DNA from: a virus | IMG/VR virus record: IMGVR_UViG_3300033067_002067 | Location: 9,301-73,300 of that record | Direction: 5' to 3' (one strand) | DNA: 64,000 bases | In this document: positions 10,082-12,722 of the stretch, piece after piece | Position numbering within the stretch: position 1 is the first letter of the stretch | Layout: every line of letters starts with the position of its first letter | The notes under the pieces: generated by a model | What the model was told of the DNA's origin: nothing | Database searches by the model: none | The model's input: the letters and a program-made list of their open reading frames with translations, nothing else | Position numbers and translations under genes: made by a program

Positions 10082-10153
10082 TTAGGATGCCTACAGCAAC
10101 AAAACGCCCATAGGGCATTTGCACTTGTAAAGCAAACCGTAAGCGCATCCTGG
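10082..10153 (+). repeat. copy 2 of the aggatgcctac...gcatcct stem element, enclosing hairpins gccc-atag-ggc and tttgc-acttgtaaa-gcaaa
   Basis: 7-bp terminal helix aggatgc/gcatcct; sequence family shared with 9291-9346. Confidence 0.4.
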
Positions 10154-10164
10154 TACTAAATCGA

Positions 10165-10240
10165 GACTCCAGAGCATGGTTAGAATATGCGGACGTCTCT
10201 AAAACGTTTGATGCGGGGGCAGTTCCCGCTGGGGTCGCCA
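10165..10240 (+). tRNA. tRNA-like gene with amber anticodon CUA (candidate suppressor tRNA or tRNA-mimic)
   Basis: perfect cloverleaf: acceptor gactcca/tggggtc, G73, CCA; D gcat-ggttagaat-atgc; anticodon stem gacgt/acgtt loop ctctaaa; T-stem gcggg/cccgc but T-loop ggcagtt (no T-Psi-C). Confidence 0.5.
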
Positions 10241-10351
10241 TTAACATAGGAGAGCTAACATGGAAATCGTTCGTACGTAGCGCTATTATCCTCCCTAAAG
10301 ATTCTTCTTGAATCATAAAGTAACTTATACTATATTCAAGGAGAATTAAAC

Positions 10352-10768
10352 ATGTCAGTAGAACTAAAGATTAAATCCAAGCACCTCGGATTAGAAGCAG
10401 GTGTTATTCGTTTCGAAGAGCATAAGATCAAGAAGCAAATTCGTTGGAAGTCTAAAACCCAACAGCCCATTGATCACGAAATTTATCAACTAAACAATTT
10501 AAAGAACCATCGTAGATGGGATGTGCGTAACGAAAATCGAGCAACATTTCTCGCTCGTGCGTACATTGCAGGTATTCCATATAAGGCTCTGGAAGCCAAG
10601 CGCAAGCCAGAGAATGAGAGTAGATTTAAGAATAATGTCCTACCCAGAGTAGCCGCAATGGTCTCTAAGTACGACAAAAAACATTACAAGTATACTTCAA
10701 CCAAAGAAGCACGTGATGCTCACCGCAAGGTGGTTCAAAAAGTAATTGAACGTTGGGTTGAAGAGTAA
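10352..10768 (+). CDS. hypothetical basic protein (138 aa)
   Basis: strong SD aaggag; K/R-rich. Confidence 0.55.
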   Translation: MSVELKIKSKHLGLEAGVIRFEEHKIKKQIRWKSKTQQPIDHEIYQLNNLKNHRRWDVRNENRATFLARAYIAGIPYKALEAKRKPENESRFKNNVLPRVAAMVSKYDKKHYKYTSTKEARDAHRKVVQKVIERWVEE

Positions 10769-10905
10769 GTTATAGGATCAGTTCAGCAACATAAAAGCTA
10801 GTACAAGCAGGTAGCACGGAGTCGAGACCCGTATTCTAACTTAGTTAGAATTGGTGTAATGGTAGCACACCCGCATAAAGCAAAAAGTTGATCCTGAAAG
10901 AAAAT

Positions 10906-11023
10906 GGTATTGGTTCAGCAAAACAACCGCAAGGTAGCTCATTGGTAGAGCATCTGTCTATAAAACAGAAAGTAGTTGGTTCAAATCCGACCCAATCTCG
11001 AAAGAGATGCAAAAAACAATACC
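10906..11023 (+). ncRNA. candidate Y RNA-like ncRNA: tRNA-like core (10928-10998) closed by a long-range helix, 250 nt upstream of the Ro60-like gene
   Basis: D-arm gctc-attggta-gagc, anticodon-like arm tctgt-ctataaa-acaga, T-arm gttgg-ttcaaat-ccgac, but acceptor strands do not pair; closing helix ggtattg (10906-10912) / caatacc (11017-11023); hairpin tctc-gaaa-gaga follows. Confidence 0.45.
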
Positions 11024-11279
11024 GATAAAATTTTTAGAGTAGATACAGCATATCATTGGCCAATTCGGCCGATTTAAAAAGAAGGCCTTCGGGCCACCTC
11101 AAAAAGGCGAAAGCCAAGGTGATCTTTCAAAGTGGTATCACCTGAGAAAAACTTACCATGGAGAGCATACTACTCTGGCTGATTCTATGAATGGATACAG
11201 CAATACAAAATCCCTCACTGGAACGGGGCTGGCATGAGAGCCACCCCGCCATTCTGTAACATAATGAAAGGAAGTTACT

Positions 11280-12722
11280 ATGTCTACTTTTGCAAACGCA
11301 GTAAAGAACCAGGAAGCTCGTACCGCAAATGGTATGAAGGCTCGTAAGAATTCATCACTTGCTACTGTCGACTTGTTCAACAAGATCGGCGCATCTCGTG
11401 GCAAGAACATTATCCCAGACTTCGTAGCGGCATATGCCCAGAATAAGGATCACGCATTGCGTATCGCTTTGTGGGCTCGTGACGTACGTGAAGGTGCTGG
11501 TGAGCGTAAGCTTTACCGCGATATCCTTGGCTGGCTAGAGAAGAACGATAAGGATGCCGCAATGGCATTGGCTCGTCGTACTCCAGAACTTGGTCGTTTC
11601 GACGACCTGTTGAACTTTACGGAACCTGATGTGAAGCAGTTCGCATTCAGCTTGATCCGTGAAGCTATCAATGCTGGTAACGGTCTCGCTGCTAAGTGGA
11701 TGCCTCGTAAGGGCGAAGTGGCTGTTGAGTTGCGTAAGTTCCTTGATATGACGCCAAAGCAGTATCGTAAGACGCTTGTTCGTCTAACGAAGGTTGTTGA
11801 GACTCAGATGTGTGCTCGTGAATGGGATGGTATCAACTTCTCTCACGTACCTTCTGTGGCCGCTGCTCGTTATCGTAAGGCGTTCTATAAGCATACTCCA
11901 AAGTTTGCTGAGTACGTTGAAGAGCTGAAGAAGGCTCCTGAGGACCGTAAGGAAGAGTTCAAGGACGTTAAGGTAAACGCTAAGGCGGTCTTCCCTTATG
12001 ACGTATTGAAGTCTCGTATTTCTCGTTACCACTCATATGGTATCCAGAATAACTTGGCTGAGACGGAATTGAGCTTCATTGAAGCTCAGTGGAACGCATT
12101 GCCAAACTACATGGGCGATGCAAACGTTCTTCCTCTGGTTGACGTTTCAGGTTCTATGGTGTCGCAGGTATCTCCAGGTCTGACTGCGCTTGACGTAGCA
12201 GTATCGCTTGGTCTTTACTGCGCAGATAAGAACACTGGTAAGTTCAAGGACGTGTTCTTGACCTTCTCTGGTCATCCTGAGTTGTTGATGCTTCAGGGCA
12301 ATATCAACCAGAAGATCGATCAGATGATCCGCTCTAAGTGGGAAATGAACACTAACCTGCATGCAGCATTCGACCTTGTGTTGAAGGTTGCAAAGATGAA
12401 CAAGGTTCCTCAGTCAGAAATGCCAGAGGCTATCTTGATTCTATCTGACATGCAGTTCGACCAGTGTGTTCGTTACGACGACAGCGCAATCGAGATGATC
12501 GAGCGCAAGTACAACGAGGCTGGCTACGCTATGCCTAAGGTTGTATTCTGGTGCTTGAATGCATATGCAAACGCTGCTGTTAAGTTCGATACCAAGGGTA
12601 CTGCTCTTGTATCAGGCTTCTCACCAGCAATTGCTAAGAGCGTTCTGGCAAACGATCTGGAAGACTTCACTCCAGAGAACGTAATGTTGAAGACGATTCT
12701 CAAGGATCGCTACAACTACTAA
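11280..12722 (+). CDS. TROVE/vWA-domain protein (Ro60/Rsr-like, alternatively a DUF2828-type protein), 480 aa
   Basis: C-terminal vWA with MIDAS DVSGSM...T...LSDMQFD resembling the Ro60 vWA (DVSASM...FTDNE); alpha-helical N-terminal region consistent with a TROVE torus; strong SD. Confidence 0.6.
   Translation: MSTFANAVKNQEARTANGMKARKNSSLATVDLFNKIGASRGKNIIPDFVAAYAQNKDHALRIALWARDVREGAGERKLYRDILGWLEKNDKDAAMALARRTPELGRFDDLLNFTEPDVKQFAFSLIREAINAGNGLAAKWMPRKGEVAVELRKFLDMTPKQYRKTLVRLTKVVETQMCAREWDGINFSHVPSVAAARYRKAFYKHTPKFAEYVEELKKAPEDRKEEFKDVKVNAKAVFPYDVLKSRISRYHSYGIQNNLAETELSFIEAQWNALPNYMGDANVLPLVDVSGSMVSQVSPGLTALDVAVSLGLYCADKNTGKFKDVFLTFSGHPELLMLQGNINQKIDQMIRSKWEMNTNLHAAFDLVLKVAKMNKVPQSEMPEAILILSDMQFDQCVRYDDSAIEMIERKYNEAGYAMPKVVFWCLNAYANAAVKFDTKGTALVSGFSPAIAKSVLANDLEDFTPENVMLKTILKDRYNY

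Follow-up and report, generated by a model that had tools for sequence, protein, structure and literature searches.

A Ro60-like phage protein gene beside tandem, partly tRNA-mimicking RNA modules: a candidate divergent Ro60/Y-RNA locus

A Ro60-like protein gene lies downstream of five small RNA modules

The DNA analysed here is a stretch of 64,000 nucleotides (nt) from a virus (IMG/VR record IMGVR_UViG_3300033067_002067, positions 9,301 to 73,300), called the window below. Our subject is the locus at its positions 10082-12722, in which a gene for a Ro60-like protein stands downstream of a series of small, partly tRNA-like RNA elements. ARAGORN finds 25 tRNAs in the window, 22 of them within 1-6600 and all on the + strand. 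The locus consists of a 275-nt gap, an open reading frame (ORF) of 138 amino acids (aa; 10352-10768), a non-coding gap of 511 nt (10769-11279) and a 480-aa ORF (11280-12722). Five tandem same-strand modules, which we name M0 to M4, occupy 10084-11255, that is, less than 1.2 kb; each is closed by a common terminal element, the handle. The features of the locus are the following.

10084-10151, + strand: module M0, helix AGGATGC / GCATCCT followed by CUACAGCAA, G after the 3' strand
10165-10240, + strand: tRNA, most likely of the amber-suppressor type, anticodon CUA, encoded CCA (ARAGORN; cloverleaf minimum-free-energy (MFE) fold)
10352-10768, + strand: 138-aa ORF, function unassigned; an ORF of 130-138 aa stands at the same position in all close relatives (synteny)
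10774-10895, + strand: module M1, permuted tRNA mimic of YrlA-like architecture, handle AGGATCA / TGATCCT followed by GUUCAGCAA
10906-11023, + strand: module M2, tRNA mimic with natural arm order and no acceptor stem (Rfam tRNA model, orthologues, covariation)
11036-11176, + strand: module M3, handle AGAGTAG / CTACTCT followed by AUACAGCAU
11188-11255, + strand: module M4, in the 5' untranslated region of the gene, handle (U)GAAUGG / CCAUUC(U) followed by AUACAGCAA
11280-12722, + strand: gene for the Ro60-like protein, 480 aa
11280-12104, + strand: N-terminal alpha-helical half (about aa 1-275), a TROVE-like HEAT-repeat ring by predicted fold, partial Pfam DUF2828 by sequence
12129-12662, + strand: C-terminal von Willebrand factor A (vWA) domain (DUF7788, aa 284-461), complete MIDAS motif (metal ion-dependent adhesion site)

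The 480-aa protein resembles Ro60 by predicted fold and not by sequence

The first-pass annotation of this DNA had taken ORF 11280-12722 for a Ro60/TROVE protein with a C-terminal vWA domain and a MIDAS. The domain and the motif are indeed present. Pfam DUF7788 (PF25043), which is vWA-like, matches aa 284-461 at E 2.3e-44 (151.7 bits against a cut-off of 27.1), and the MIDAS is made up of DVSGSM (nt 12141-12158), T358 and SDM (aa 389-391), with D288, S290, S292, T358 and D390 invariant in an alignment of 65 homologues. As to the rest of the protein, sequence and fold give different answers. By sequence it leads to DUF2828: the C-terminal part of this Pfam model (PF11443) is matched at E 3.8e-23 (82.4 bits against a cut-off of 29), VWA_2 is matched weakly, and PHROG 850 (phrog_850, 'RNA-binding protein') is matched over the full length at E 6.7e-133. 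Five distant homologues give a similar Pfam pattern, with DUF2828/DUF7788 and without TROVE. None of the NCBIfam models matched the protein, and no Ro60 chain was found among the PDB sequences at E<=10, either by phmmer with the protein or by a search with a 9-sequence profile.

The fold was assessed on an AlphaFold2 model derived from the 65-sequence alignment (predicted local distance difference test score, pLDDT, 88.8; predicted template modelling score, pTM, 0.87). In a Foldseek search with this model the top ten matches were all Ro60 entries (E 9e-10 to 7e-7), with template modelling scores of 0.54-0.63 for eight of the ten and 0.38 for 2nvo, and vWA domains began in the list at E 1e-3. 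The model could be aligned with Ro60 across 387 residues, the non-vWA half included. It supports a protein built as a Ro60-fold ring of helical repeats plus a MIDAS-containing vWA domain. Moreover, because the best Foldseek matches were all Ro60, the DUF2828/DUF7788 family itself is predicted to be a Ro60-fold family, whose members count as Ro60 by fold and not by sequence. The earlier assignment is therefore right as to the fold, over nearly the full length, and has to be corrected as to the sequence family. DUF2828 was the alternative to TROVE that this annotation had itself offered, and an unrelated vWA family, which it had given as grounds for refutation together with an N-terminal half not similar to TROVE, does not apply, as DUF2828/DUF7788 has the Ro60 fold in the model.

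Homologues are present in 711 phage records, with hosts that include Escherichia, Salmonella (Felixounavirus), Mycobacterium, Listeria, Staphylococcus, Campylobacter, Enterococcus, Bacillus, Vibrio and Aeromonas. Their annotations are mixed, ranging over hypothetical, vWFA, DUF2828, 'RNA-binding protein' and 'Ro-like RNA binding protein'. BLASTN of the locus against phages matched only about 200 nt of the gene, and the closer relatives (71-82% identity, shared synteny) were obtained by protein search.

The modules share a handle and differ in what it encloses

The handle comprises a terminal helix of 6-7 bp, 2-4 nt and a single-stranded CAGCA(A/U) on its 5' side, with an A-rich 3' side and a G past the helix. 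It was first exposed by alignment of the intergenic region as a recurring motif, (G/A)U(U/A)CAGCAA; BLASTN of this region against the upstream regions of relatives gave short motif matches only, and these pointed to the handle. The 511-nt intergenic region folds at z = -4.58, with none of 100 shuffles folding equally well, and MFE folds of the window modules recover each closing helix. Five helix+CAGCA signatures occur in 1.2 kb of the window, compared with about 0.02 per kb of shuffled sequence. The consensus of 148 distinct modules from relatives starts with a U-rich 5' flank and a 7-bp helix beginning A-G-(G/A), continues with N-U-N-CAGCA-A and an A-rich stretch, and closes with a 3' strand ending C-U, then G (90%) and U-U. 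In neither Rfam 15 nor the searchable literature (DUF2828, PF11443, Ro60-like phage proteins) did we find such a family described.

Whereas CAGCAA is universal, the five opening bases of the helix are peculiar to each lineage. In the window's clade the helix starts with AGGAU or AGAAU, in Felixounavirus with AGACC, in phages of Bacillus and Staphylococcus with (A/U)AGAC, in phiM12 with AAGCGGC and in LeBron with UG(A/G)NNNC; this could reflect co-evolution with the protein of each phage or concerted evolution of the copies. Other identities were considered and dropped: the helices are too short for RNase III sites, there is no U tract as in an intrinsic terminator, the sequence of the handle does not fit a K-turn or T-loop, and an RNase E consensus fits the module flanks poorly.

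What the handle encloses, here called the payload, differs from module to module. In M1 the handle is followed by a T arm (ACGGA-GUCGAGA-CCCGU), a capped 8-bp acceptor-like stem-loop (AUUCUAAC-UUA-GUUAGAAU), U-G, a D arm (GUGU-AAUGGUA-GCAC), an A-rich 3' side and the closing strand of the handle, and this is the order of a tRNA that is circularly permuted and closed at its acceptor end. A strict per-sequence parse found the same layout (T arm, capped stem, U8-N9, D arm) in 31 of the 44 modules with a handle that come from other phages, E. coli phages skuden and Bas63 among them; the parse was used because the MAFFT alignment of M1-type modules is too ragged for pair counting. The capped stem in these parses is mostly exactly 7 bp long and its sequence is different in nearly all of them. 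In mycobacteriophage LeBron, the middle module (L057:4544-4652) gives a full-length match to the Rfam YrlA model at 39.8 bits (E 1.6e-5), which is below the gathering threshold of 69 bits. The match lies in the tRNA-like part and the terminal stem is mismatched, and this fits a payload in common with YrlA that is joined to a different handle.

The payloads of the remaining modules are simpler or not tRNA-like. M0, which was seen in the window only and is absent from close relatives L048-L051, contains a GCCC/GGGC hairpin and an anticodon-arm-like hairpin with the loop CUUGUAA. M3 contains four hairpins, UUCG- and GAAA-capped ones among them, and is not tRNA-like; its handle and 3' strand are kept in L048, L049, L051 and L054. 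M4 has a single G+C-rich hairpin and ends about 10 nt 5' of the Shine-Dalgarno sequence of the gene (GAAAGGAAG, 11266-11274); its CCATTC is kept in all six aligned relatives. One more module lies outside the locus.

576-730, + strand: outlying module in the tRNA array, 10-bp helix (576-585 / 721-730) followed by UUGCAGCAAC

It has a T-arm-like hairpin inside and exactly fills the space between tRNA-Lys (502-577) and tRNA-Gly (730-803). Among small modules in general (<=75 nt), 85 of 317 hold an anticodon-arm-like hairpin, defined as a 5-bp stem with a 7-nt loop Y-U-NNN-R-N, against about 2 in shuffles; UGU, UUU and UCU are the commonest triplets. Payloads that extend from a bare anticodon arm up to a whole tRNA shape suggest engagement of tRNA-recognising factors.

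Comparative evidence points to M2 as an acceptor-less tRNA mimic

The first-pass annotation had singled out two tRNA-like RNAs upstream of the gene. One of them (10928-10998), said to have D, anticodon and T arms, non-pairing acceptor strands and an enclosing 7-bp helix, is M2, and all of this proved accurate; the other (10165-10240) is discussed further below. M0, M1, M3 and M4 had been missed, although it is M1 that has the true YrlA architecture.

The helix of M2, GGTATTG / CAATACC (10906-10912 / 11017-11023), is exact over its 7 bp and is followed by GUUCAGCAAAA. The core at 10933-10993, made of a D arm, an anticodon arm with the loop CUAUAAA and a T arm, matches the Rfam tRNA model (RF00005) at 49.2 bits over model positions 6-65 of 71 only, and keeps the canonical U8, A14, G18-G19 and GGUUCAAAUCC T-loop. 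Acceptor pairing and CCA were looked for in this core and neither is present, the flanks being unpaired and the ends closed by the distal helix. M2 also holds a GAAA-capped hairpin (11008-11019) and an A-rich 3' side.

Orthologues of M2, with a matching truncated tRNA hit, are found in the equivalent gap of L048-L054, and a pattern made from the invariant stretch of M2 retrieved 13 further copies from viral contigs, most of them between ordinary tRNAs. When 17 M2-type sequences were aligned, 97.1% of the cells were paired and 15 of 23 pairs were compensatory, with compensatory changes at 6 of the 7 pairs of the closing helix. None of 500 shuffles was as good, and slid controls were 34-44% paired. 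The 'anticodon' varies even between close relatives (AUA, UUA, UUC, UUG, UCU and others). Judging by these comparisons, M2 is a selected structure, and neither a pseudogene nor a decoding tRNA.

Modules accompany the gene in other phages

On the strand of the gene, modules are about 20-fold above chance in about 140 related loci. A profile-based search for such loci gave only relatives of 59-64% identity, and diversity was obtained from annotated phage records. With a strict finder, 451 kb of homologous loci yielded 174 modules on the strand of the gene against 7 on the opposite one, shuffles averaging about 8. A relaxed finder gave 206 against 24 in gene-oriented loci, and an independent set of 80 loci 232 against 35. 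A G-U pair is present in 27 of the 174 helices of the strict set, which argues for an RNA rather than a DNA element. At least one module was found within 600 nt upstream of the gene in 65 of 69 independent loci, and in 39 of the 69 a module ends at most 40 nt from the start codon; typically, the 3' strand of the module and then G-U-U stand directly before the Shine-Dalgarno sequence of the gene.

The phages concerned are diverse. Upstream of the gene, Listeria phage LMSP-25 has three modules in tandem, Synechococcus phage BUCT-ZZ01 three, Campylobacter phage F365 and Pseudoalteromonas phage J2-1 two each, and Enterococcus phage EF1 one; LeBron and Staphylococcus phage S-CoN_Ph1 have three each directly downstream of it. 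Modules also occur in the arrays of Bacillus phage Skywalker, Sinorhizobium phage phiM12 and Felixounaviruses. As there is no tRNA in the locus (within 3 kb) in LeBron and BUCT-ZZ01, where the modules stand beside the gene, it seems that modules follow the gene and not merely tRNAs. Conversely, an 18-nt handle pattern alone picked 80 viral stretches of about 9 kb each, 21 of which contain the gene, always on the same strand. No handle modules were found in the tRNA clusters of T4 and T5, although stable RNAs are annotated there. To our knowledge T4 and T5 also lack the gene, and the finding of only 120 Escherichia matches is consistent with this.

It should be mentioned that tiny 'hypothetical protein' coding sequences overlap some modules, namely bas63_0137 and bas63_0138 (antisense; L281:5840-6052) and CoNPh1_CDS0133 (L157:4519-4608, S-CoN_Ph1). 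These are probably annotation artefacts.

A divergent Ro60/Y-RNA system is the favoured reading of the locus

The fold of the protein, the RNA structures with their conservation and the co-localisation of gene and modules were computed here, and on balance we favour the view that the locus encodes a divergent Ro60/Y-RNA system whose RNA handle is new and whose payloads are modular tRNA mimics. A phage Ro60-like protein beside Y-RNA-like tRNA mimics was the core idea of the first-pass annotation, and it is well supported by the Ro60 structural matches, the covariation of M2 and the YrlA match in LeBron. The observation is thus confirmed and its interpretation partly supported, being right at the core and in need of correction as to the member RNAs, the sequence family of the protein and the gap downstream of the gene.

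As for binding, processing, host targets and autoregulation, we infer the following course. M0-M4 together with the module in the tRNA array would be the Y-RNA-like partners of the protein. The handle may be the protein-binding site, by analogy with Y RNAs and their Ro-binding stem and CGAA motif, and the variable payload would imitate a tRNA wholly or in part: in M1 as a permuted L-shape whose acceptor end is capped, in M2 as an acceptor-less tRNA body and in M0 as an anticodon-arm-like hairpin, besides the plain hairpins of M3 and M4. The modules might be co-transcribed with the gene and the tRNA array and be released as small closed-end RNAs, partly via processing of the flanking tRNAs. The tRNA-like payloads of the particle could engage and blunt host tRNA-processing, RNA-processing or tRNA-targeting factors, a function proposed by analogy with Rsr-YrlA, with Ro60-Yrl of phage phiLo and with the counter-defence phenotype of Bas63 gp130 (see the last section). 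Finally, M4 abutting the ribosome-binding site might let the protein repress its own translation.

Several observations weigh against this reading. The protein, unlike that of Rsr/YrlA systems, lacks a TROVE sequence match: TROVE (PF05731) gave none at E<=1 for the protein or for the five distant homologues. The first-pass annotation had looked to the Rfam covariance models to recognise the RNAs, and neither YrlA (RF02553) nor Y_RNA matched anything in 9900-13100 of the window at E<=10; apart from the truncated tRNA match, the scan of this region in E-value mode returned nothing but noise (rli38, Giardia U2, CRISPR-DR16). Following the 7-bp helix, the modules carry N(2-4)CAGCA(A/U) where the 5' strand of YrlA has GNCGAA(N)G, thought of as its Rsr-binding site (PMC4201824), and in the Rfam YrlA consensus GgCgaAUG stands where the modules have CAGCAA. 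The helices of M3 and M4 show no covariation among six close relatives. The gene is present in only 26% of the stretches selected by the handle, which are short compared with contigs. Aeh1 and ValKK3 carry a homologue that has no clear module closer than 3 kb. Many modules lie inside tRNA arrays and could serve the expression of the array instead of the protein.

A bolder version can be put forward, which we regard as possible and rather doubtful. According to it, helix+CAGCAA modules are an undescribed, very widespread family of phage small RNAs, dedicated ligands of DUF2828-type Ro60 proteins, and the two would form a modular 'tRNA-decoy' particle that traps or misdirects host tRNA-targeting defence nucleases or RNA-decay enzymes. 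The payloads on one ring would be interchangeable, being either bare anticodon arms (often UGU, UUU or UCU) or mimics of the whole tRNA, the latter in two topologies. Such a particle would account for the gene's travelling with the tRNA arrays of phages and for the action of Bas63 gp130 against a host defence.

The main rival to the Ro60/Y-RNA reading dispenses with any physical link between the modules and the Ro60-like protein. The modules would be RNA elements that belong to phage tRNA arrays, whether cis-acting or free (processing 'punctuation', structures that stabilise transcript ends, or stand-alone tRNA or anticodon-arm decoys), and the gene would merely share their expression region. 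On one hand, many modules exactly fill gaps between bona fide tRNAs (576-730 in the window; L063-L075; Bas63), their flanks are conserved (U-rich 5' and G-U-U 3') and are perhaps cleavage sites, the 7-bp terminal helix has the length of an acceptor stem, anticodon-arm-like hairpins are far commoner than in shuffles, and no modules are near the gene in Aeh1 and ValKK3. On the other hand, this rival is at odds with LeBron and BUCT-ZZ01, whose modules have no tRNA nearby, and with the lack of modules in the tRNA clusters of T4 and T5, and in most loci a module abuts the ribosome-binding site of the gene. Besides, a CAGCA that is invariant in phages of hosts from Actinobacteria to Proteobacteria suits a phage-encoded reader better than diverse host nucleases. 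We therefore consider this rival unlikely.

It is very unlikely, in our opinion, that the repeats act at the level of DNA, as inverted repeats AGGATNN...NNATCCT marking cassettes, mobile or recombining, by which pieces derived from tRNAs are shuffled. Inside a genome the outer positions of the helix are semi-conserved (AGGAT.., AGACC.., AAGAC..), and the contents between the repeats are highly variable, tandem and cassette-like, as such an idea would have it. However, the motif is strongly confined to the transcribed strand, the G-U pairs would be A-C mismatches on the opposite strand, the inner helix positions covary, and the interiors are covarying tRNA-like folds with tertiary-contact nucleotides intact.

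Least credible of all is that 10933-10993 is a decaying tRNA pseudogene or an unusual functional decoding tRNA and the protein an ordinary vWA protein unrelated to RNA: a 49-bit tRNA match in a tRNA-rich phage and a protein whose named domains, by sequence, are DUFs plus a weak vWA match are in its favour, but in 17 phages, the proteins of which have diverged to about 60% identity, there is covariation in the stems and no change in the D arm or T loop, acceptor pairing and CCA are absent, the 'anticodon' shifts among close relatives, and the alignment with Ro60 takes in the non-vWA half.

The reading as a Ro60/Y-RNA system, if true, has consequences beyond this window. Ro60/Y-RNA particles are known from animals, bacteria and a few phages, whereas the DUF2828 / 'RNA-binding protein' phage family is much larger and has had no RNA partner described yet; the locus offers a concrete candidate, a short, sequence-searchable handle joined to tRNA-mimicking payloads. 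Phage tRNA arrays have many unannotated gaps, a part of them now mis-annotated as tiny ORFs, and these would gain a function. There would be a testable molecular basis for the Bas63 gp130 counter-defence phenotype in E. coli, and an example of a Ro60-type scaffold re-tooled with a different RNA recognition motif.

Neighbouring features include a probable tRNA of the amber-suppressor type

The RNA at 10165-10240 has the cloverleaf, the CCA and the odd T-loop (GGCAGUU) that the first-pass annotation had noticed, and the Rfam tRNA model (RF00005) does not match it at E<=10. It is kept in L048, L049 and L050 with an invariant CUCUAAA loop and encoded CCA, and compensatory changes distinguish L050 from the window in the acceptor, anticodon and T stems. 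This comparison makes it most likely a real tRNA of the amber-suppressor type. The earlier idea of a non-ordinary, Y-RNA-like molecule was rejected in view of the conserved cloverleaf, the compensatory changes and the encoded CCA. The tRNA adjoins the module array, yet is probably independent of it. Its presence coincides with a near-absence of TAG stops: + strand ORFs of at least 100 aa in the whole window end with TAA in 43 cases, TGA in 24 and TAG in 1, and TAG read as sense fuses one ORF pair (37240-38298). This could mean either TAG avoidance or partial recoding.

The gap downstream of the gene had been pointed out as hairpin-rich and as containing a repeat.

12723-12998, + strand: downstream gap with hairpins only, the strongest at 12940-12977 (GAGAACCCC...GGGGUUCUC)

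Both observations hold. The hairpin 12940-12977 sits immediately 5' of the ribosome-binding site of the next ORF (ATG 12999), and CCCCTGCC occurs twice (12773-12780 and 12945-12952), its second copy being the 5' arm of this hairpin. No handle module and no Rfam match were found in the gap, so that we do not count it as part of the system, and no relation of the CCCCTGCC repeat to handle modules was seen.

The 138-aa ORF 10352-10768 has no match in Pfam or PHROG. ORFs of the homing-endonuclease type flank the locus on both sides (8732-9256 and 14182-14682); one is GIY-YIG/SegE-like and the other has an HNH-like sequence, with a PF13392 HNH_3 gene as its counterpart in relative L049. The window also encodes a two-piece (permuted) transfer-messenger RNA (tmRNA) at 46657-47063 (Rfam tmRNA_permuted 86.5 bits, alpha_tmRNA 63.2 bits). 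Finally, the array gaps 2037-2159 and 6233-6414 fold with canonical T-arm sequences (GGAUGGUUCGAAACCAUC; GAGGUUCGAAUCCUU). They are called tRNA by neither ARAGORN nor Rfam and have no CAGCAA handle; they may be further non-canonical tRNA-like RNAs.

Comparison with known systems

Small stable RNAs within phage tRNA arrays, some of them tRNA-like, are familiar from T4 (species 1 and 2, annotated at record positions 70908-71171, L280) and T5 (RNAI, RNAIII, RNA1, RNA2 and RNA3, annotated together with RNAX at 30284-41566, L076). In contrast to the modules, they have no helix+CAGCAA handle and no known associated Ro60-like gene, and form a separate set. Near the homologue of Aeromonas phage Aeh1, about 2.5 kb downstream of it, lies an element (L160:6920-7050) with an 11-bp closing helix, no CAGCAA handle, a D-arm-like and two T-arm-like hairpins inside, and intron-containing tRNAs adjoining; the tRNA array of Aeh1 was looked for in 78-97 kb and was not found there. 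T4-like phages may use a different RNA design.

GOLLD and ROOL RNAs are similar to the modules in that they co-reside in tRNA arrays just upstream of the homologous gene, and different in that they are far larger and have unrelated structures. The window contains neither (Rfam). GOLLD was found in an environmental phage contig (L009:1876-2304, 196.6 bits), and a ROOL-like match of 88.5 bits (gathering score 99.1) in Listeria phage LMSP-25 (L059:1470-2021), where an RtcB 'tRNA-splicing ligase' is encoded 1.3 kb downstream as well.

The likeness to bacterial Rsr with its YrlA and Yrn1 RNAs is closer. Proteins of the Ro60/Rsr kind bind Y RNA with the outer surface of the ring and take up single-stranded RNA ends in its central hole. 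There, too, the gene for a ring-plus-vWA protein adjoins same-strand small RNAs, sometimes in tandem, whose ends form a terminal stem beside a conserved single-stranded motif and whose body mimics a tRNA. YrlA, the partner of bacterial Rsr, is a permuted tRNA with a closed acceptor end (PMC4201824), and M1 has the same order of arms: terminal 5'/3' stem, T arm, capped acceptor-like stem-loop, D arm. The arm order of M2, with the ends joined at the acceptor position, is that of Deinococcus radiodurans Yrn1 as described by Chen et al. 2014 (PMC4201824). Unlike YrlA, many modules are minimal hairpins or anticodon-arm mimics and are spread through tRNA arrays.

Among phages, the Ro60 of Thermus phage phiLo binds two upstream Y-like RNAs (Yrl1 and Yrl2, with a CGAA motif) and host polynucleotide phosphorylase (PMC12135203; PDB 9KOP, 9L5Y). 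The window shares with it a phage Ro60-fold protein, in our case as modelled, and Y-like RNAs directly upstream of the gene. It differs in that the phiLo protein is a recognisable TROVE protein and the phiLo RNAs carry CGAA and are not described as modules of tRNA arrays.

Within the family itself, the homologue in Escherichia phage JohannRWettstein (Bas63), gp130 (bas63_0130), is 38.6% identical over 97% of the query. It has been reported as a Ro60-like protein that counters the Ppl defence, its deletion sensitising the phage to Ppl, and the PhageMaP authors guessed that some annotated neighbouring tRNAs might be Y RNAs (bioRxiv 10.1101/2024.10.10.617714). The modules that we find in Bas63 occupy unannotated gaps between tRNAs and have no description in that preprint. 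Nevertheless, the arrangement resembles that of the window: the gp130 gene lies directly upstream of a tRNA array, and four handle modules, one of them M1-type, stand in the gaps of this array.

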